DNA of 36,412 nucleotides from IMG/VR virus record IMGVR_UViG_3300043436_004120, positions 64,001 through 100,412 of that record. One strand, 5' to 3'. The position numbers were made by a program, and so were the translations under genes. This document shows positions 6,484 to 35,863 of the stretch, piece by piece. The number at the start of each line of letters is the position of its first letter. The stretch's first letter is position 1. The notes below the pieces were generated by a model that was given only the letters and a program-made list of their open reading frames with translations, had not been told where the DNA came from and made no database searches. This DNA is from a virus (taxonomy: Duplodnaviria; Heunggongvirae; Uroviricota; Caudoviricetes).

Positions 6484-6512
6484 ATTATATCATAATAGCA
6501 TAATGCTGTCAA
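6484..6512 (-). promoter_or_regulatory. sigma70 promoter TTGACA-N17-TATAAT for the side-fibre operon
   Basis: + strand ATTATA...TGTCAA with 17-nt spacer, immediately after a terminator. Confidence 0.75.
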
Positions 6513-28502: not shown

Positions 28503-28747
28503 TTGTGGTATGGCACCGTAGTGGTTTTGGGATTTTGTTCAAATAGGCCGCGTGTGGGTGGGTGCAGCGGCATATGTGTAAACTTTAGTCTACTAACCGC
28601 CCCTAGTCCTTTTGTTTGCAAACCTACCACAGTATGAGTACTTTTGTTTCCTATCAGATTTGTGAACCAACTACTACTTAGGGTAAGCACCTAGAAAATA
28701 ATTTGCAAAAGGCTTGCACAACTAAAATTCAATGGTATAATTCATAC

Positions 28748-28945
28748 ATGACAACGAAAGACACTATGACTACCGAAACACGAATCTCTGCACTTGCATA
28801 TGCTGAAGCCCTGATTGCATACTATCGTGCACAAAATACCGAAGGTATCGACAAGGATACTTTGGTTCGCAAAGCATATAATGCGCTGTGTGATGCACAA
28901 AATATGTTGGCTTATGAGGCTGAATGTGAGGCTAAAAATGCGTGA
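28748..28945 (+). CDS. Hypothetical protein (65 aa)
   Basis: ATG 6 nt after TATAAT; alternative ATG at 28766; stop overlaps the next gene. Confidence 0.6.
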   Translation: MTTKDTMTTETRISALAYAEALIAYYRAQNTEGIDKDTLVRKAYNALCDAQNMLAYEAECEAKNA

Positions 28946-29024
28946 ATTTTTTGACATGGTGTTGGCAATGGCTTGCATTGCCTTGCCTTTTGTGATATAC
29001 TTTGCTTTTGTAATGAAACCTTGA
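28938..29024 (+). CDS. Small single-TM membrane protein (28 aa)
   Basis: GAGG RBS; MREFFDMVLAMACIALPFVIYFAFVMKP; overlaps the upstream stop. Confidence 0.55.
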   Translation: MREFFDMVLAMACIALPFVIYFAFVMKP

Positions 29025-29037
29025 AAGGAAAATTGAA

Positions 29038-29361
29038 ATGACTGCTAAAACTGTGAACTATACCCCTGAGCAAACCTTGCAAATGGTTGCCGACTACCAA
29101 GCCGGTGCAACTGTTGAAACCATTGCTGAAAAGTTGGGCAAGACCGTGCGTTCGGTGGTTGCCAAACTGTCACGCGAAAAGGTTTACGTTGCTAAAACGT
29201 ACGTTTCCAAAACTGGTGAGGCTGTAATCAAAAAGGATGCTGTTGCAGACTACATTGCTGAGGCTCTTGGCTTGGGTGAGGCTGATGCTGAATCGCTAAC
29301 CAAAGCTAACAAAACTGCGCTGAAAGCCATTGCAGATTTCATCAAGGCTGAAAAGACCTGA
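29038..29361 (+). CDS. HTH DNA-binding protein, T5 A2-like, paralogue 1
   Basis: YTPEQT...IAEKLGKTVRSVVAKLSRE..Y HTH; KK...SLTKANKTAL C-terminus like A2; strong RBS. Confidence 0.7.
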   Translation: MTAKTVNYTPEQTLQMVADYQAGATVETIAEKLGKTVRSVVAKLSREKVYVAKTYVSKTGEAVIKKDAVADYIAEALGLGEADAESLTKANKTALKAIADFIKAEKT

Positions 29362-29366
29362 TTTGT

Positions 29367-29391
29367 GCAGGGGATTGCATCCCCTGCTTTT
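29367..29391 (+). terminator. Intrinsic terminator overlapping the -35 of the next promoter
   Basis: GCAGGGGAT-TGC-ATCCCCTGC-TTTT. Confidence 0.75.
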
Positions 29392-29426
29392 GTGTGATAT
29401 AATTGTTTTTTAACTTGGAGAATATG

Positions 29427-29738
29427 ATGAAACTGTCAGCAATTGAAAAAACTATCCGCAAAGAACTCAAACAAGACCTGGCCCAGGCTAATGGACAGGT
29501 TTTCACTGATGAGGACTTTAGCATTACTGTGGTGGCTGTGCCTGCGTGTGGGCGTGAGGATTCGGCTTTTGTGCACGTTGCCGTGGCACAATGTAGCTCA
29601 GGCGACACATTCAAGCGCAAGCGTGGCGAACTGATTGCGCTTGAGCGTTGGGCTGATGGTTGCGTGTTGAGCGTTCGCCGTAATGGGCGATGCTTGCAAG
29701 ATGTTGCTGATGACTTGGTAGGATTCTTGACAATGTAA
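29427..29738 (+). CDS. Hypothetical phage protein with C-x3-D-x-F-x4-G-x2-IA motif
   Basis: GGAG RBS; VAVAQCSSGDTFKRKRGELIALER. Confidence 0.65.
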   Translation: MKLSAIEKTIRKELKQDLAQANGQVFTDEDFSITVVAVPACGREDSAFVHVAVAQCSSGDTFKRKRGELIALERWADGCVLSVRRNGRCLQDVADDLVGFLTM

Positions 29739-29753
29739 TCTTTTGTTTCCAAT

Positions 29754-29821
29754 CCGCAAATGAATACTTTTGTTTGCGGCTTGGGGCGCCAATTATATCA
29801 CATATAATTGGCCCGTGTCAA
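29754..29821 (-). repeat. Early-region repeat, copy A (antisense promoter plus 18-mer core)
   Basis: ATGAATACTTTTGTTTGC 29760-29777; GGCGCC; ATTATA 29792; TGTCAA 29816-29821. Confidence 0.85.
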
Positions 29822-29902
29822 GGGTTTGGTGATTGATTTTTACAATCACTGCGATAAATAAAATCAATGCTCAAACACTTGCCAATGGCTTATAATACAC
29901 AC

Positions 29903-30034
29903 ATGAACACAAACACTTACATTGTCCACAATATGTCCGGCGTATATTATGATATGCTTATGAATAGTTGCCCTGCATGGGTCTGGACAGATACAGAATT
30001 TGAAGATTATTTTGCAATGATGACAGGATGTTAA
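29903..30034 (+). CDS. Hypothetical protein (43 aa), probably leaderless
   Basis: ATG 6 nt after TATAAT; MNTNTYIVHNMSGVYY...; stop 1 nt before the next ATG. Confidence 0.55.
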   Translation: MNTNTYIVHNMSGVYYDMLMNSCPAWVWTDTEFEDYFAMMTGC

Positions 30035-30035
30035 C

Positions 30036-30356
30036 ATGAAACAATTTATTGATTATCTCAAATTAAAAAAGCCCGTTACAATTCGGATTGTGCCACGCAA
30101 GAATTCACAATGTGATGCTGAATACGAACCTGAGTATTCAGAACGCGGCAAATTGTGTGAACACATTATTACAGTTTACACCAAGAATGCAACCCGTGAT
30201 TTTGAAACCCTTATTGCACATGAATTAATTCACGCATGGCAAGAAGAAAATAAAAAAACAGAAACACATGGCCCTGCATTTATTAAATATGCAAACAAAA
30301 TACAACGTGATTTTGGCTTGCGTGATGTTTACATTTCAGGCATTGACTTAGAATAG
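30036..30356 (+). CDS. SprT-like zinc metalloprotease
   Basis: TLIAHELIHAW...HGPAF (HExxH plus downstream HG..F). Confidence 0.75.
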   Translation: MKQFIDYLKLKKPVTIRIVPRKNSQCDAEYEPEYSERGKLCEHIITVYTKNATRDFETLIAHELIHAWQEENKKTETHGPAFIKYANKIQRDFGLRDVYISGIDLE

Positions 30357-30366
30357 AAACCAAGGT

Positions 30367-30440
30367 TTGCAAACAAAAATGAATACTTTTGTTTGCAAGT
30401 TGGCGCCAATATTATACTATATAATATTTGGCCGTGTCAA
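30367..30440 (-). repeat. Early-region repeat, copy B
   Basis: TTGCAAACAAAA-ATGAATAC-TTTTGTTTGCAA (12-bp stem); GGCGCC; ATTATA 30411; TGTCAA 30435-30440. Confidence 0.88.
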
Positions 30441-30584
30441 GGGGTTGTGCGAAAAAACAACGAAAATAATTGTAACAGTCGGGGCAAATTGTTACACTTT
30501 ATTTTGTTGAAACAACAAAAAAAGCCTTGCAAAGCTCAAAAAGCCTGATATAATTACTACATCAACAACGAACAGAGGTTCAAA

Positions 30585-31061
30585 ATGGCTAAGATTACAA
30601 AGGTTTCGATTTACGACATGGATGGTACTATTGTTTGCAGTTTGCACAGATATAGAACTATTGTTGACGAAAACGGCGAGCGTATTGATTTGAATTACTG
30701 GCGCGAAAATGAGTATCGCGCAATGGATGATTCATTATTGCCATTAGCATCACAATATCGTGCTGATTTGCGTGATGATAATACTTTTGTGATTATTGCC
30801 ACTGCCCGAGTTTTGCGTGATGCTGACAATGAATTCATTAAAACTGTTTTAGGTGAACCCGATTATATTATTAGTCGGGTTGACGGTGATTCAACTTCAG
30901 GCGGTAAACTCAAAATCGCTGGTTTGGCAAAGTTTTTTAATCTTAAAAACTTCAAAGATGCTGAATTTACATTTTATGAAGATAATACCACTTATTTAAA
31001 AGCTGTCTGTGACCGTTTTAATATTCGTGGGGTTTATGTTCCATCAAAACAAGGTCACTAA
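30585..31061 (+). CDS. HAD-superfamily phosphatase (polynucleotide kinase phosphatase-like)
   Basis: IYDMDGTI motif I, IIATAR motif II, FYEDN motif IV. Confidence 0.8.
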   Translation: MAKITKVSIYDMDGTIVCSLHRYRTIVDENGERIDLNYWRENEYRAMDDSLLPLASQYRADLRDDNTFVIIATARVLRDADNEFIKTVLGEPDYIISRVDGDSTSGGKLKIAGLAKFFNLKNFKDAEFTFYEDNTTYLKAVCDRFNIRGVYVPSKQGH

Positions 31062-31097
31062 AATATAATCCCTTCGGGGATTATAAAGGATTATAAA

Positions 31098-31253
31098 ATG
31101 ATTAATCGCATTAAATTTTGGCTCAATATGTTATTGATTCCAATATACACTATTCTATTTTTTATTGTTGGGCAAAAACATTTATATAATGAATATATAG
31201 ATGAATTAAAATTGGCCATTAATGAAACAAAAAGAAAATATAATATAAAATAA
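31098..31253 (+). CDS. Small membrane protein (51 aa)
   Basis: AAAGGA RBS; hydrophobic stretch FWLNMLLIPIYTILFFIV; not in the supplied ORF track. Confidence 0.55.
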   Translation: MINRIKFWLNMLLIPIYTILFFIVGQKHLYNEYIDELKLAINETKRKYNIK

Positions 31254-31263
31254 CACTTTTGTT

Positions 31264-31333
31264 TGCAAACCAAAATGAATACTTTGGTTTGCAGTTTGCG
31301 CCAATTATATCATTATAATTGTGCCCGTGTCAA
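31264..31333 (-). repeat. Early-region repeat, copy C
   Basis: TGCAAACCAAA-ATGAATAC-TTTGGTTTGCA (compensatory change relative to B); GCGCC; ATTATA 31304; TGTCAA 31328-31333. Confidence 0.88.
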
Positions 31334-31401
31334 GTTTTTTCGTATAACTTATTTTTCGTGTGTGATTAAAAAACAACAAAATTCTGTGATATAATTCAGG
31401 C

Positions 31402-31782
31402 ATGGACAAAAAAGCACTTTTAACCCACTTACAGCGTGAGACTGTAATGATTTGGGATACACTTTGCGAAATTTATACACCTTTGGTTCACTACAACGAG
31501 CCAAAGGTAGAACTTAACCCTTACTTTTGGCGCTGTGCTGGTGCGTGTTTTCAGGAACAAAACCGCATACAAATGGGTTACAAATTTTTCAAAGCTAAAA
31601 CAGAATATTTCAATATCATGATGGATGTAATACTTCCGCATGAAATTATTCATCAGGCTGACTGGAATCTTTTCGGAAAATCCGAAAAAATTTGTGGGCA
31701 TGGTGAAAATTGGCAAAAAATCATGGTAGAATATGGGCTAGACCCTAACCCACATCACACAATGGAGATTTTGAGAAAATGA
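31402..31782 (+). CDS. SprT-like zinc metalloprotease, second copy
   Basis: ILPHEIIH...GHGENWQKIM...G; ATG 6 nt after TATAAT. Confidence 0.8.
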   Translation: MDKKALLTHLQRETVMIWDTLCEIYTPLVHYNEPKVELNPYFWRCAGACFQEQNRIQMGYKFFKAKTEYFNIMMDVILPHEIIHQADWNLFGKSEKICGHGENWQKIMVEYGLDPNPHHTMEILRK

Positions 31783-31994
31783 TTACTTTTGTTTCTTGGT
31801 TTGGTACTGTTGCAAGTATCCTTGGCAGTTTTGCAGTTGCAACCGCAATGTTTAAATTGGGATATGTTTTGTTTACTTTTGGTTCACTGGCTTGGTTGAT
31901 GGTTGCTTTTGTTCGCAAAGACAAGTCGCTGGGTGTACTTAATGGCACATTTTTTGTTGCCAACCTTTTGGGCATTTACAATAACTTTTTTTGA
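31779..31994 (+). CDS. Three-TM small membrane protein (PnuC/half-transporter-like)
   Basis: WFGTVASILG...GSLAW...KD..L..LN..F...N..GI; three hydrophobic helices. Confidence 0.6.
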   Translation: MITFVSWFGTVASILGSFAVATAMFKLGYVLFTFGSLAWLMVAFVRKDKSLGVLNGTFFVANLLGIYNNFF

Positions 31995-32055
31995 AGTTTT
32001 TTGTAAATTCTCGAAAAACTGTGTTATAATCTAGGCTTACCAACTGAAAGCAATC

Positions 32056-32754
32056 ATGGCTAAAAAACAATTCTTTGCAATTCTTGACACTGAAACCACA
32101 ATTGAAAATACTGTGGCTGATTTTGCCATTATTATCGTTGACCGACAAGGCAAAATCCATAATCAATGCGCTGTTTTGGTAAATAATCATTATGGCAATT
32201 TTGAATTGTTTCACGATAAAAAAGCCAATGATATTTGGGGTTATTCTGGTTTGGAAAAACGAAAAGCCAATTATGTGAAAATGCTAGATAATGGCTCACG
32301 TATGCTTGCCTCAATTAATGCCATTAATAAATGGATAAACCAAGCCATTGGCAAATATAATCCTATTTTGACTGCATATAATCTCAGTTTCGATTTAGAC
32401 AAATGCCAAAATACTGATATTGATTTATCTGGTTTCACAGAAAAGTTTTGTTTGTGGCAAGCCGCTATTGGTAATATCTGCAATAAAAAACAATATCGTG
32501 ATTTTGTTTTGCAAAATCACCTTTTTAATAAACCCACAGTAAATGGCAATATGACATTTTCAACAACTGCTGAATCAGTTTGTGGTTTTATTAATGGTGA
32601 ATTTAAAATCGAGCCACATACTGCCTTAGAAGATGCCCGTGATTTTGAATTGCCGATTTTGCAAGCCGTTATTAATAAACGCGATTGGCGCGAGAAAATG
32701 ACACCATATAACTGGAAACAGTTTCAAGTAAAAGACCATTTCAAACCCGCATAA
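32056..32754 (+). CDS. DEDDh-family 3'-5' exonuclease
   Basis: ILDTETT (Exo I), AYNLSFD (Exo II), HTALEDA (Exo III). Confidence 0.85.
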   Translation: MAKKQFFAILDTETTIENTVADFAIIIVDRQGKIHNQCAVLVNNHYGNFELFHDKKANDIWGYSGLEKRKANYVKMLDNGSRMLASINAINKWINQAIGKYNPILTAYNLSFDLDKCQNTDIDLSGFTEKFCLWQAAIGNICNKKQYRDFVLQNHLFNKPTVNGNMTFSTTAESVCGFINGEFKIEPHTALEDARDFELPILQAVINKRDWREKMTPYNWKQFQVKDHFKPA

Positions 32755-32769
32755 TATAGGGGCGATTAT

Positions 32770-32886
32770 ATGAAAGCATTATATATAATCGCCCTTTGCT
32801 TTCATTTACTGGAAGAAAAGCGATTAGAAACTAAATACGAAACAAACCCTTTTCAAATTCAAACTGTGACGGAGATAATCAAATGA
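32770..32886 (+). CDS. Hypothetical protein (38 aa)
   Basis: AGGGG RBS; ATGA overlap with the PQ-loop gene; not in the supplied track. Confidence 0.45.
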   Translation: MKALYIIALCFHLLEEKRLETKYETNPFQIQTVTEIIK

Positions 32887-33134
32887 TGGAAACTATTGGC
32901 TGGATTGGTTCTATATTATTGGCATTTTGTGGATTACCTCAAGCCATAGAATCTTATAAAACAAAAAACTCGGATGGATTAACTTGGGGCTTTTTGGGAA
33001 TGTGGGGAATGGGCGAGATATTCACCATAATCTACATTTTACCAAAATGGCATTGGCCGCTGATATTTAATTATACCGCCAACATTATATTTATTTCGAT
33101 TATCTTGTATTATAAGATTAAACCGAAAAGATAA
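32883..33134 (+). CDS. PQ-loop / SemiSWEET-like three-TM transporter
   Basis: IGWIGSILLAFCGLPQAIESYKTKNSDGLTW (PQ motif), then two more TM helices with PL..NY. Confidence 0.82.
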   Translation: MMETIGWIGSILLAFCGLPQAIESYKTKNSDGLTWGFLGMWGMGEIFTIIYILPKWHWPLIFNYTANIIFISIILYYKIKPKR

Positions 33135-33135
33135 T

Positions 33136-33161
33136 AAAAAGCCCCAGGACGGGGCTTTTTT
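33136..33161. terminator. Bidirectional intrinsic terminator
   Basis: AAAAAGCCCC-AGGAC-GGGGCTTTTTT. Confidence 0.85.
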
Positions 33162-33168
33162 ATTTGTG

Positions 33169-33249
33169 AAACAAAAGTATTCATGACCAAAAATGAATAC
33201 TTTTGTTTTCGGGGCGCCAATTATATCATTATAATTGTGCCCGTGTCAA
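33169..33249 (-). repeat. Early-region repeat, copy D (core present as a 16-bp inverted pair)
   Basis: AAACAAAAGTATTCAT-N8-ATGAATACTTTTGTTT; GGCGCC; ATTATA 33220; TGTCAA 33244-33249. Confidence 0.88.
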
Positions 33250-33334
33250 CATTTATTTATAACATATTTTTTGTAGGGGATTAAAAAACAACACAATTTT
33301 ATGGTATAATTAGGTGTGGGCGCGCCAAAAATTT

Positions 33335-33423
33335 ATGGATACTTTTGTTTGCAAAAATTTCTGTGAACCAAAGCATTACAAGCCTGGCGCCAAAATTATA
33401 CCACACGCCCAAAAAGCTGTCAA
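33335..33423 (-). repeat. Early-region repeat, copy E (core more distant from the promoter)
   Basis: ATGGATACTTTTGTTTGC 33335-33352; GGCGCC 33386; ATTATA 33395; TGTCAA 33418-33423 (17-nt spacer). Confidence 0.75.
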
Positions 33424-33505
33424 TAGGGGTTTATCCCTATGTTGTATTTTCGCAAATTTTAAAAAACACTTGTTTTTTGCCTGTTTTGTCTGTATAATAG
33501 AACAC

Positions 33506-33688
33506 ATGATGAAAACAAAAACCCTTCCAAAAAGTCGTGGCTTTGCCACTGTTGTAAATGGTAAACTTACTGTTTACGTTGGTGCAACTCAGCGTGAAAT
33601 GACTATGAAGTTTTTTAATACTAAAGTAGTCAAGGTAAAATTTGACTATTTGGGGCTTGGACGGGTTGCAAATGTTGAAATTGTGTGA
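33506..33688 (+). CDS. Hypothetical basic protein (60 aa), probably leaderless
   Basis: ATG 7 nt after TATAAT; MMKTKTLPKSRGFATVVNGK...; the longer 33314 start crosses repeat E and is not credible. Confidence 0.6.
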   Translation: MMKTKTLPKSRGFATVVNGKLTVYVGATQREMTMKFFNTKVVKVKFDYLGLGRVANVEIV

Positions 33689-33721
33689 TATAATTGTTTT
33701 TTAACCTGAAAGGAAATCAAA

Positions 33722-34054
33722 ATGGAAAAAGCAACTAAGGCGGTCAACTATACCGCAGAGCAAACCGCTAAAATGGTGGCCGATTATGCGGCTGGTGTCG
33801 CAGTTGAGACAATCGCTGAAAATTTGGGCAAAACCGTTCGTTCGGTTGTGGCTAAACTGTCACGCGAAAAAGTCTACGTGGCTAAAACTTATGTTTCAAA
33901 AACTGGTGCTCCAGTAATCAAAAAGGATGCACACGCTGATGCAATCGGCGCGATTCTCAAATTGTCTGAGAATGAGATCGAAAGTCTTACAAAAGCCAAT
34001 AAAACGGCACTGGAAAAGATTTTCTCAGCATTGGCAAATTCTAAGCCAATCTGA
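33722..34054 (+). CDS. HTH DNA-binding protein, T5 A2-like, paralogue 2
   Basis: GKTVRSVVAKLSREKVYVAKTYVSKTG identical to paralogue 1; own promoter and AAGGA RBS. Confidence 0.7.
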   Translation: MEKATKAVNYTAEQTAKMVADYAAGVAVETIAENLGKTVRSVVAKLSREKVYVAKTYVSKTGAPVIKKDAHADAIGAILKLSENEIESLTKANKTALEKIFSALANSKPI

Positions 34055-34057
34055 TTA

Positions 34058-34076
34058 ATGGGGCATTATGCCCCAT
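34058..34076 (+). terminator. Hairpin / probable terminator
   Basis: ATGGGGCAT-T-ATGCCCCAT followed by TTT. Confidence 0.55.
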
Positions 34077-34101
34077 TTTCCCTTTTTAATCTGGAGATAA
34101 T

Positions 34102-34353
34102 ATGTTTTTTAATTTGCCCTCATTTGCTGATAAACCCGTTGTTCTAACATTTTGCCAATTGGGTATTAATCCCCAAGATTATAATGGTTTGCCATTTGAG
34201 AAAATCAGGCCTGAATATATTAATATCGCGGCGGATTATCTGCTGGATATTACTGGCGATTATGACTATGAGTTATTCGCGCATTATGAATGGGAAATTG
34301 ATTATGTCCAGCGATTAATTAAAATCCCCCGATCAGCATTTGTTCCTGATTAA
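34102..34353 (+). CDS. Hypothetical protein (83 aa)
   Basis: GGAG RBS; clean ORF between two terminators. Confidence 0.65.
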   Translation: MFFNLPSFADKPVVLTFCQLGINPQDYNGLPFEKIRPEYINIAADYLLDITGDYDYELFAHYEWEIDYVQRLIKIPRSAFVPD

Positions 34354-34357
34354 TTTT

Positions 34358-34380
34358 AAAACCCGCATAATGCGGGTTTT
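34358..34380. terminator. Bidirectional intrinsic terminator
   Basis: AAAACCCGCAT-A-ATGCGGGTTTT. Confidence 0.8.
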
Positions 34381-34393
34381 ATTTTGCCCACTA

Positions 34394-34482
34394 ATGTGTA
34401 CTTTTGTTTGCCATGCAAAAATGAATACTTTTGTTTGCAATTTGGCGCCAAAATTATAGCATAGAATTTTAGCCTGTGTCAA
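34394..34482 (-). repeat. Early-region repeat, copy F (two direct cores)
   Basis: ATGTGTACTTTTGTTTGC 34394-34411 and ATGAATACTTTTGTTTGC 34421-34438; GGCGCC; ATTATA 34453; TGTCAA 34477-34482. Confidence 0.88.
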
Positions 34483-34527
34483 GCACTGTTACAAACTGTT
34501 ACAATTGGATGTTGTTTTTTTGCCACC

Positions 34528-34542
34528 TGGCACGATTCTTGC
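34528..34542 (+). promoter_or_regulatory. sigma54 (-24/-12) consensus site
   Basis: TGGCACGATTCTTGC matches TGGCACG-N4-TTGC. Confidence 0.55.
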
Positions 34543-34552
34543 GCCAGCGGCC

Positions 34553-34573
34553 AAATGCGAATCATTATCATTT
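34553..34573. promoter_or_regulatory. Fur-box-like site
   Basis: AAATGCGAATCATTATCATTT; 7-1-7 core TGCGAAT-C-ATTATCA vs consensus TGATAAT-N-ATTATCA. Confidence 0.55.
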
Positions 34574-34590
34574 GCGTTCGCAATTGCGTA

Positions 34591-34638
34591 TATGCTTATA
34601 TAATTATATGCTTATATAATTATATGCTTATATAAGCA
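34591..34638. repeat. AT-rich 16-bp tandem repeat, 3 copies
   Basis: TATGCTTATATAATTA twice, then TATGCTTATATAAGCA; the last copy contains the palindrome TGCTTATATAAGCA. Confidence 0.9.
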
Positions 34639-34649
34639 AATAAGCATAA

Positions 34650-34666
34650 AGCACCATAATGGTGCT
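34650..34666. promoter_or_regulatory. NtrC-box-like palindrome
   Basis: AGCACCATAATGGTGCT matches GCACC-N5-GGTGC. Confidence 0.55.
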
Positions 34667-34752
34667 GCGCCAGTGGAAAACCTTGTCAAGTGCAAAACCT
34701 TGGGCCTCATGCGCCAGTGGCCAATCAAGTGCAAAAACGTAGTGGTTGGTCT

Positions 34753-34787
34753 GCGCCATTATACCAGTGGCCAATCAATTGTGTCAA
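34753..34787 (-). promoter_or_regulatory. Early-region repeat, copy G (antisense promoter only)
   Basis: GCGCC-ATTATA-N18-TGTCAA. Confidence 0.65.
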
Positions 34788-34859
34788 GTAAAAAATTTTT
34801 TATTTGATCCGTGTGCCCAAGTTTTGTATAATTGTTATATCAACAGTAAGGAACCACAC

Positions 34860-34991
34860 ATGACAACAGCCGATTTTTTCGCAGATTTTGCATACGAGCA
34901 GTACTCGGAATTTGTGGACCACGAACTTCGCGAAATGTTCCAGTGTACCAACCCTCAAGACAAAAATTTTGATCTTGATGTTCCATTCTAA
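34860..34991 (+). CDS. Small acidic protein (43 aa)
   Basis: AAGGA RBS, own promoter; MTTADFFADFAYEQYSEFVDHELREMF...DLDVPF. Confidence 0.6.
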   Translation: MTTADFFADFAYEQYSEFVDHELREMFQCTNPQDKNFDLDVPF

Positions 34992-35040
34992 TCACGGTAT
35001 AATAATATCTTCAACAGCGCAGAAACCAACCAAAGGACAT

Positions 35041-35352
35041 ATGATGACTAAAGCAACCCCTCAAAACTACACCCCCGAGCAAACCGTGGAACTCGTCACT
35101 GGCTACCAGTCGGGCAAAACCGTTGAGCAACTGGCCGAGACTCTGGGCAAAACCGTGCGTTCGGTTGTGGCTAAACTGTCGCGCGAAGGCGTGTACGTGG
35201 CCAAGACCAAGGCAACTGGCCAAGCCCGTGTAAAGAAAGCCGAGCTGGTGGACAAACTGGCACTGGCCTGTGGCGTAGCTCCAGAAGTGTTTGAATCGCT
35301 GGAAAAGGCCAATCACGAAGTCTTGGAACGACTTGTTGCCGAACTGGCCTGA
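35041..35352 (+). CDS. HTH DNA-binding protein, T5 A2-like, paralogue 3
   Basis: AAAGGA RBS; LGKTVRSVVAKLSREGVYVAKT...SLEKAN; true start 35041, not 34888. Confidence 0.7.
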   Translation: MMTKATPQNYTPEQTVELVTGYQSGKTVEQLAETLGKTVRSVVAKLSREGVYVAKTKATGQARVKKAELVDKLALACGVAPEVFESLEKANHEVLERLVAELA

Positions 35353-35788: not shown

Positions 35789-35863
35789 ACTTGATTCGTC
35801 TATCGGCTAGGACACCCGCCTTTCACGCGGACAAGACGGGTTCGATTCCCGTATCAAGTACCA
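35789..35863 (+). tRNA. tRNA-Glu (anticodon UUC)
   Basis: Acceptor ACTTGAT/ATCAAGT, D arm GTC/GAC, anticodon loop CT-TTC-AC, T arm ACGGG-TTCGATT-CCCGT, encoded CCA. Confidence 0.93.

Follow-up and report, generated by a model that had tools for sequence, protein, structure and literature searches.

The stretch analyzed here, referred to as the window, is 36,412 nucleotides long and comprises the last 36.4 kb (positions 64,001 to 100,412) of IMG/VR virus record IMGVR_UViG_3300043436_004120, a 100,412-bp genome estimated to be 95% complete. The virus is an uncultured freshwater T5-like siphovirus, a relative of phage T5, and lake-water metagenome is the label on five sequencing runs that contain more than half of the stretch, one of which may be the source sample. 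The two-piece tmRNA that the phage itself carries suggests a betaproteobacterial host. A late operon of the siphovirus type occupies the minus strand from 266 to 28690 and encodes the small and large terminases (terS, terL), portal, a protease-capsid fusion, major tail protein, tape measure, and a J-like fiber; the large terminase is 49% identical to terminases of Vibrio, Salmonella, and Escherichia T5-like phages. From 28750 to 35352, small plus-strand genes were found, which in family searches encode two SprT-like proteins, a PQ-loop protein, a phosphatase-like protein, and three helix-turn-helix (HTH) paralogues, with an extended -10 promoter ahead of each gene or small gene group. Scattered among these genes and pointing against them is an array of seven promoter cassettes (A to G), six of which carry a conserved 18-mer core, GCAAACAAAAGTATTCAT; these backward cassettes are the subject of this analysis.

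The features of the array are listed below in window coordinates, where "box" denotes the core or its degenerate copies and z refers to the fold of the predicted 5' region:

28609..28651, minus strand: promoterless pair of cores, 27 nt apart and in the same sense as the cassettes, in the terS late-operon leader; kept in relatives

29038..29361, plus strand: HTH paralogue 1, candidate box-binding protein

29733..29821, minus strand: cassette A, with promoter 29792-29821, GGCGC 29786-29790, hairpin 29749-29784 around core 29760-29777, and a degenerate second box at ~29733-29750; z -2.8

30353..30440, minus strand: cassette B, with promoter 30411-30440, GGCGC 30403-30407, hairpin 30367-30398, and core 30379-30396; z -5.1

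Second box of cassette B, minus strand: degenerate, immediately beyond the SprT stop codon

31249..31333, minus strand: cassette C, with promoter 31304-31333, hairpin 31264-31293, core 31275-31292 (C-G replaces A-U), and second box 31249-31266; z -4.2

33136..33249, minus strand: cassette D, with promoter 33220-33249 and core 33193-33210 paired with an inverted copy at 33167-33184; z -7.6

33136-33160, two-way: terminator of cassette D; predicted RNA ~80 nt

33281..33423, minus strand: cassette E, with N17 promoter 33395-33423 and core 33335-33352, 42 nt beyond the -10; fold not significant (z -0.5)

33281-33310, plus strand: promoter facing E, followed by GGCGCGCC

33722..34054, plus strand: HTH paralogue 2, with a GcrA-DNA-binding-domain-like N-terminal HTH and a C-terminal domain predicted to dimerize

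34357..34482, minus strand: cassette F, with promoter 34453-34482, core 34421-34438, and second copy 34394-34411; z -3.7

34357-34381, two-way: terminator of cassette F; predicted RNA ~92 nt

34486..34787, minus strand: cassette G and hub, with promoter 34758-34787 followed by GGCGCAG, without a core, reading into TTTGCACTTGA...CCACTGGCGCA repeats and a GGCGCAG-hairpin unit

35023..35352, plus strand: HTH paralogue 3, the sole paralogue not downstream of a backward promoter

An exact-pattern search for TTGACA-N16-19-TATAAT returned nine matches in the window against 0.10 expected, including seven on the minus strand at 29792, 30411, 31304, 33220, 33395, 34453, and 34758 (spacer N18 in six, N17 at 33395) and two more perfect promoters within the late block, at 6484 and 18071; the whole 100,412-bp genome contains 12 perfect sites. 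All seven backward promoters scored 12/12 in a promoter scan, six have TGn ahead of the -10, A-rich blocks lie in the AT-rich DNA upstream of them, and GGCGC follows the -10 at a distance of 0-3 nt in every case. The core begins 14, 14, 11, 9, and 14 nt past the -10 in A, B, C, D, and F, respectively, and 42 nt past it in E, whereas G has none. No minus-strand gene was found downstream of the seven promoters; the sole candidate open reading frame (ORF), 29342-29752, has no Pfam or PHROG match and overlaps a plus-strand ORF whose changes relative to a related virus are partly synonymous in the plus frame, and the same searches did match plus-strand ORFs to the SprT-like, PQ-loop, HTH, and phosphatase families. 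This anatomy agrees with the original prediction, made from the sequence alone, which had described the seven promoters with GC-rich discriminators and no credible minus-strand ORF, a core 9-14 nt past the -10 in five copies and 42 nt past it in a sixth, a core in D paired with its inverted copy, degenerate second direct copies in A, C, and F, and terminated RNAs of ~75-90 nt at D and F. It had also described stems with a compensatory A-U to C-G change in B and C; the exchange is genuine, and the stems, given there as 11-12 bp, measure 13-14 bp.

The region contains two interleaved promoter classes: forward promoters of the type TGn-TATAAT that lack a good -35 and have an AT-rich discriminator, and backward promoters that combine GGCGC with a perfect -35 and an 18-bp spacer. 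Each backward promoter stands back to back with a diverging, weaker forward promoter 17-90 bp away, and one such pair has been duplicated as a single module (31343-31396 versus 33258-33311, 83% identity). In T5, sigma70 serves all temporal classes, and the discriminator is the main difference between early and late promoters (PMC7472727); by analogy, the GGCGC discriminator is therefore read here as the putative mark of a separately regulated, temporal promoter class. Several forward transcripts are predicted to be leaderless pre-early mRNAs, with ATG or GTG 6-8 nt past TATAAT (29890-29905, 31390-31404, 33305-33316, and 33488-33499). The plus-strand promoter at 33281-33310 and backward promoter E face each other across a geneless gap of ~85 bp that is kept in relatives, and their RNAs would be fully complementary.

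The back-to-back arrangement would also suit a reading that we consider quite unlikely, in which the backward promoters are helpers whose RNA is irrelevant, and divergent transcription boosts the weak, often leaderless, -35-less forward promoters on relaxed linear DNA through supercoiling or polymerase recruitment. A spacer of 18 bp and a GC-rich discriminator are features of supercoiling-sensitive promoters, and both are present in the cassettes; the proximity of a forward promoter to every backward one, the duplication of the pair as one module, and an early stop at D and F, which fits a dispensable product, all agree with such a role. However, helper activity leaves the conserved box, its two copies, and a palindrome at the -10 (see below) unexplained, and short untranslated RNAs would exert little rotational drag.

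The core itself is highly specific to the region. Eleven matches to the 18-mer at three or fewer mismatches were found against 0.11 expected, all within 28634 to 34438, and none was found elsewhere in the genome at two or fewer mismatches. Outside the cassettes, the box occurs only as the pair in the terS leader and as a near match at the start codon at 31779. A logo of 95 unique copies, anchored on GTATTCA, reads T-G-(C/A)-A-(A/T)-A-C, four free bases, the invariant GTATTCA, and then T-rich bases; the free bases are AAAA in 48 copies and CTGA in 28, and the left half-site, GNAWAC, is GCAAAC in 48 copies, GAATAC in 18, and GAAAAC in 15, while the right half-site read on the opposite strand is GAATAC. 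The 18-mer is a pseudo-palindromic 16-bp box, G(C/A)A(A/T)AC-N4-GTATTCA, consisting of two 6-bp half-sites one helical turn apart. In some members of the clade of related viruses, a perfectly symmetric variant, TTGAATAC-CTGA-GTATTCAA, stands at the identical position behind these promoters.

In most copies the box starts 9-15 nt past the -10 and thus spans approximately +8 to +23, a location at which polymerase would be blocked by a bound protein. A further copy of the box, in many cases degenerate, lies at approximately +34 to +49, either 26-27 bp further on or inverted a few bases away. Among orthologous F cassettes the two copies are direct in some phages and inverted in others, a switch that is tolerable for a nearly symmetric DNA site and not for one RNA fold. 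The near match at 31776-31796 covers the start of a gene for a 71-amino-acid membrane protein (ATGATTACTTTTGTTTC) and equals the reverse complement of the core with three mismatches; it is kept in at least 14 related loci and may represent a target, the sequence from which the core evolved, or a chance resemblance preserved by coding constraint. The core pair at 28609-28651 adjoins TTACCCTAAGT, a copy of the genome-wide GACCCTAA repeat. Two plus-strand interpretations were rejected: a promoter formed from the mirrored TATAAT has no -35-like hexamer at 16-19 bp, and the frames of a small peptide (ATGAATACT..., MNTFVC) diverge between copies after eight codons.

To assess the distribution of the cassettes, the exact 18-mer was traced to 58 viral contigs, many of them near 100 kb, and a probe combining the promoter with GGCGC recovered 221 units from the loci of those contigs. 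Approximately half of the 221 units are followed by the box; the remainder lead into other hairpins or into a short stretch and a terminator. All promoters point in one direction in 46 of the 46 loci with two or more units, and the ORFs between the units of these loci amount to 97.6 kb on the opposite strand versus 8.3 kb on the same strand. In five relatives with genomes of 96-104 kb, the 5-8 units per genome form a single cluster of 7-8 kb on one strand, with none in the other ~90 kb. The shared orientation and clustering are therefore conserved, rather than accidental to one genome. Perfect promoter hexamers were retained in 66 of 76 copies.

Known elements and cultured phages gave no counterpart. 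Megablast and blastn searches of 6.8-7.4 kb against 50,697 GenBank phage records found no match, nor did tblastn with HTH paralogue 2, and Rfam returned no family in the cassettes at E-values up to 1, all hits there scoring far under threshold. The only Rfam match to attain its gathering score was a tRNA gene at 35789-35860 (52 bits), located in the ORF-poor right end of the window. The element is real and conserved, and, as the original prediction had supposed, no description of a control element of this form was found.

Behind the discriminator, the predicted 5' regions of A, B, C, D, and F fold better than shuffled sequences, but that of E does not, and in the clade the first 50 nt fold at -12.1 kcal/mol versus -7.4 kcal/mol for random sequence. 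In 109 unique hairpins from the clade, 1249 pairs are Watson-Crick, and the wobble pairs show no strand bias (28 G-T versus 25 A-C), so that the folding strand is not told apart by them. Native 5' and 3' flanks pair at -13.6 kcal/mol, compared with -9.6 kcal/mol when 3' flanks are swapped between cassettes (p 4e-12); thus, hairpin complementarity has been selected. It is achieved in several ways: by GCAAACAAAA with TTTTGTTTGC, CCGCAAA with TTTGCGG, CCCACAGAAA with TTTCTGTGGG, a whole inverted box, or the box's own symmetry. RNAalifold applied to 38 core-anchored copies recovered no consensus pairs and no shared register. The display of the motif differs accordingly from copy to copy: B and C present it in the loop and A in a 12-nt loop, D has it completely paired, and in the palindromic variant it makes up the stem itself. 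A reader of single-stranded RNA could therefore not recognize every form, whereas a reader of duplex DNA could. The stems are AT-rich, and no T-run follows them on either strand.

These properties bear on the reading that the original prediction had placed first, namely a family of trans-acting small RNAs with a shared seed, or decoys, in which abundant short hairpin RNAs titrate a host RNA-binding or defense protein or base-pair to AUGAAUAC-type sequences. Two cassettes, D and F, form complete promoter-hairpin-terminator units with predicted RNAs of ~80 and 92 nt, a terminator occurs 76-102 nt downstream in 33 of 176 clade units versus 5 of 200 controls, the 5' 50 nt are more stable than random sequence, and the start of the gene at 31779 matches the core antisense with three mismatches, a match that is kept in relatives. 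Nevertheless, discrete RNAs are predicted for only two of the seven cassettes here, about four-fifths of clade units lack a terminator, the motif lies in loop, stem, or full pairing without a common register or a G-U strand bias, Rfam is empty, and orthologous F cassettes exchange direct for inverted copies. The trans-acting small-RNA reading is thus weakened to an unlikely one, in which approximately one-fifth of clade units would be complete small-RNA genes. Other GGCGC-class promoters in the clade (e.g., in L016, L024, L027, L033, L036, and L043) are followed by ~60-70 nt and then a strong terminator (CAAAACAAAAGCCCC...GGGGCTTTTGAAC), and further conserved hairpin modules stand behind such promoters (GTCGCTTnAAGCGAC, and CGAAGTGAGTGCTTACTTCG with a conserved G-T pair on the promoter strand); these other units are further candidate small RNAs. 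Likenesses to IHF sites, the ARG box, PUR box, and DnaA box, a tRNA anticodon-loop mimic, a CRISPR-repeat mimic, (ARN)n Hfq motifs, and RNase E RN/WUU sites were poor by eye.

A second palindrome lies over the promoter itself. Of 130 unique promoters, 75 contain a perfect inverted repeat, with arms of 8-14 bp, that links the spacer with the -10 and with the discriminator's T-run/GGC, and fewer than 0.2% of spacer shuffles attain arms of 8 bp. The arms covary, in that a TAAAAT promoter carries ATTTTA in its spacer, and the left arm matches each of TATAAT-GGC, -TGGC, -TTTGGC, and -ATTGGC, tracking the length of the T-run. Because the sequence changes while the symmetry stays, the -10 palindrome points to a nucleic-acid structure rather than a protein half-site.

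In comparison with relatives, homology was interrupted at the cassettes. Four contigs (L050, L024, L013, and L028) lack the SprT module between A and B and have a hybrid cassette in its place, and two modules between C and D, at 31.3-32.0 kb and 32.06-33.3 kb, occur in reversed order in four contigs (L055, L027, L062, and L064). The cassettes therefore mark breakpoints of module shuffling, and recombination would be a side effect of repetition. A 232-amino-acid protein (32056-32754) begins with FAILDTETT, which by eye is like the first motif of DEDD 3'-5' exonucleases; it has no Pfam match and in PHROGs only the unnamed family phrog_20187.

The closest known kind of element is the promoter-early stem-loop (PeSL) cassette of T4-type phages (Arbiol et al. 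2010, PMC2839356), which likewise consists of repeated intergenic consensus sigma70 promoters with AT-rich upstream DNA in a plastic early region. Its stem-loop lies in the spacer, over the -10, or just downstream (PMC2839356), positions comparable to those of the -10 palindrome and the downstream hairpin described here, and PeSLs also serve as recombination sites that shuffle gene modules. In contrast, PeSL promoters face the next ORF and end in a Shine-Dalgarno sequence and start codon, whereas the present ones point backward and drive no gene; PeSL stem-loops are GC-rich, proven terminators, whereas the stems here are AT-rich and lack a U-tract, with separate terminators only at D and F; and the fixed 18-bp spacer, the invariant GGCGC, the second hairpin with its conserved box, and the T5-like siphovirus background are particular to the present cassettes. 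On a further reading, the units would persist mainly as scaffolds for swapping, losing, and gaining pre-early modules, with promoter activity secondary, as the homology breaks, the losses of the SprT module, the swaps in module order, and the similar action of PeSLs (PMC2839356) might suggest. Homology alone suffices for recombination, however, and a scaffold explains neither the perfect hexamers, nor co-orientation in all 46 loci, nor the compensatory changes in the palindromes, making this reading very unlikely.

The orientation of the array raises the further question of whether its transcripts serve the late genes. All seven promoters aim at the terS-terL-portal operon that begins at ~28690, two same-sense copies of the core lie in its terS leader, and D and F are succeeded by terminators in much the way that lambda PR' is. 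They could accordingly be feeder promoters with a nut- or put-like leader, whose hairpin RNA would make polymerase resistant to termination and let it read leftward into terS and the 42-kb late operon. As many as 6 kb of antisense genes would lie in the path of such transcripts, no fold is common to the hairpins, two further perfect promoters already lie within the late block (6484 and 18071), and no antiterminator protein was identified; we therefore regard a feeder function as highly improbable.

By its position, the cassette cluster looks like the pre-early, or first-step-transfer, region of T5. In T5 (AY543070), terL and the small-terminase genes are located toward the right-hand end of the unique region, ~3 kb short of the terminal repeat, which is the first DNA to enter the cell, and the cluster is placed by analogy in a T5-type first-entering region because of the same terL/terS synteny and because it adjoins a hub that resembles the T5 injection stop. 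This non-coding hub (34486-34790) and the T5 injection-stop region have in common TTTGCAC-type repeats, GCGCAG with an immediate perfect hairpin, and a AATGCGAAT...ATCATT element. The cassettes share with the untranslated repeats and injection stop signal of the T5 terminal repeat both their position by terS/terL and a conservation better than that of neighboring ORFs (Davison, bioRxiv 10.1101/866236; PMC3517423; AY543070); T5, in contrast, has no backward consensus promoters and no such box, and its leftward promoters drive dmp, A1, and A2. Within the hub, the TTTGCACTTGA...CCACTGGCGCA units resemble cassette promoters without a -10, GGCGCAG is followed by the hairpin AGCACCAT-TAT-GGTGCT (cf. 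the T5 major nick, A/GCGCAGG followed by a hairpin), and AATGCGAATCATTATCATTTGCG is comparable to T5 AATGCGAATGATAATGA.

The major nicks of T5 follow the consensus R/GCGCRGG on one strand (PMC3517423), and a search for it on the T5 minus strand recovered sites at 7.9, 18.3, 32.6, 64.5, and 99.6% of the genome, which are the known map positions; a perfect hairpin directly follows the 7.9% nick, within the repeat array that the hub resembles. All seven cassettes have G-GCGC on the minus strand, which is also the strand of the hub units; the AG continuation occurs only in G and the hub units, and none has the full 8-mer. Genome-wide, GGCGCAG is found seven times on the minus strand (1384, 29918, 42647, 68304, 81788, 98665, and 98751) versus once on the plus strand; the minus-strand sites may be candidate nick sites, with a spread that resembles the T5 major nicks, in numbers that are small. 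As a genome-wide word, GGCGC itself is not supported as enriched or strand-biased (54 versus 31).

It is conceivable, although improbable, that the cassettes are DNA-structure elements for T5-type entry or nicking, in which G/GCGC is a site of single-strand interruption between two extruding palindromes and the promoter opens or marks the site. The T5 consensus with its hairpin in a hub-like array, the shared strand of the cassette and hub units, the bias of GGCGCAG, and perfect Watson-Crick palindromes without strand bias, which fit a structure at the DNA level, agree with this possibility. Against it stand the lack of enrichment and bias of GGCGC and the absence of any reason for a perfect -35, TGn, and -10 at fixed spacing. 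In T5, moreover, no promoters were found at nick sites and no similar cassette in the terminal repeat; a nicking function therefore stays a minority reading.

If the box is a DNA site, the three HTH paralogues are the candidate proteins to bind it. They are 53-69% identical, with an invariant GKTVRSVVAKLSRE helix segment, and at least 73 homologues in the clade fall into three orthologous groups. In an AlphaFold model (mean predicted local distance difference test, pLDDT, 82), a basic linker connects a three-helix HTH at the N terminus with a three-helix domain at the C terminus. An exhaustive structural aligner placed the GcrA DNA-binding domain first (Z 8.0, root-mean-square deviation 2.8, 48 of 49 residues aligned), with a lead of one unit over the row that followed, whereas Foldseek against the PDB gave nothing at E ≤0.001, a sequence profile against the PDB also gave nothing significant, and the Pfam GcrA family (PF07750) scored 20.0 bits (E 9.6e-4), under its cut-off of 26.9. 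In a homodimer test the paralogue reached 0.56 versus 0.00 for the best control, with 100% of contacts agreeing among three runs, partner pLDDT of at least 69, and a predicted interface at residues 75-110; a mark of 0.56 was attained by 20 of 30 proteins solved as same-chain pairs and by one of 23 solved as single chains. The model thus supports a dimer, although such a pass can also stem from resemblance to dimers of solved structure.

[quoted passage not shown] Unlike GcrA, the paralogues score below the Pfam threshold and have a C-terminal domain that is predicted to dimerize. No homologues of T5 A1 or A2 were found in the genome at E-values up to 10, and the sole basis for calling the paralogues A2-like is a pairwise BLASTP E-value of 0.078. 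The alternative offered in the original prediction, DNA sites bound by the HTH paralogues, consequently fits better than its small-RNA family, given the near-symmetric box at an operator position, the invariant HTH, the GcrA-like fold, and the dimer test, although the description of the proteins as A2-like did not hold beyond that E-value. The box shows two features of an operator, namely dyad half-sites and a position over the initial transcribed region.

Taken together, we propose, as a tentative reading that is plausible but short of probable, that the cassettes are operator-controlled antisense promoters that time pre-early gene expression and not a small-RNA family with a shared seed. Upon DNA entry, unmodified host RNA polymerase would start at the backward promoters; from A, B, C, and E it would proceed head-on into the upstream gene or its leader, and from D and F transcription would end after ~80-92 nt. 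The boxes at +8 to +23 and +34 to +49 would be operators for dimeric GcrA/A2-like HTH paralogues expressed from the forward strand, such that backward promoters and forward genes would repress each other and thereby time the switch-on or shut-off of the pre-early genes. The hairpins would act either in nascent RNA, as 5' stability elements, or in DNA, as cruciforms, two modes that the pairing data do not distinguish.

Several observations weigh against operator-controlled antisense promoters. Because D and F end at two-way terminators, as do approximately one-fifth of clade units, they cannot silence the genes upstream of them; G has no box. The covariation of the flanks and of the -10 palindrome is unexplained by a protein site and points to nucleic-acid structure, and the hairpin axes are not those of the box. 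Strong backward promoters active at time zero would, moreover, hamper the genes that the phage needs first, and the logic of the circuit as drawn here is a guess. A broader arrangement, to which we give little weight, would make the promoters, boxes, and palindromes the cis apparatus that controls first-step-transfer DNA in a lineage without detectable A1/A2: polymerase loaded at promoters facing the free end, together with GcrA/A2-like dimers on the boxes, would end pre-early expression and permit, or halt, the entry of more DNA, and the -10 cruciform would sense supercoiling.

Antisense transcription from short phage units has precedents. The lambda oop RNA (from PO) and the P22 sar RNA are short cis-antisense RNAs made from constitutive promoters convergent with a phage gene. 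As in those systems, a host-type promoter in the present cassettes would fire against a phage regulatory gene from its 3' end or leader, and the predicted D and F RNAs are similar in size. However, oop and sar are single-copy units with one defined target and a terminator, whereas here 5-11 co-oriented copies per genome, mostly without terminators, share a common promoter class and box.

The switching off of pre-early genes and the pause and resumption of DNA entry in T5-type phages have been open questions for decades, with the cis-acting DNA known only as conserved, unexplained repeats. The cassettes provide a testable part list, consisting of a discriminator-marked promoter class, a 16-bp box, two covarying palindromes, and three paralogous HTH proteins that are predicted dimers, and dozens of freshwater phages that have not been cultured retain this list. 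Should the backward promoters time gene expression through operator-controlled head-on transcription, the cassettes would represent a new design of early switch in lytic phages and a source of very strong, compact, regulated promoters; if the palindromes instead act as DNA structures or nick sites, they would tie transcription signals to the nicked-genome biology of T5. Under any reading, they are a second independent case in which cassettes of promoters and stem-loops drive modular genome shuffling.

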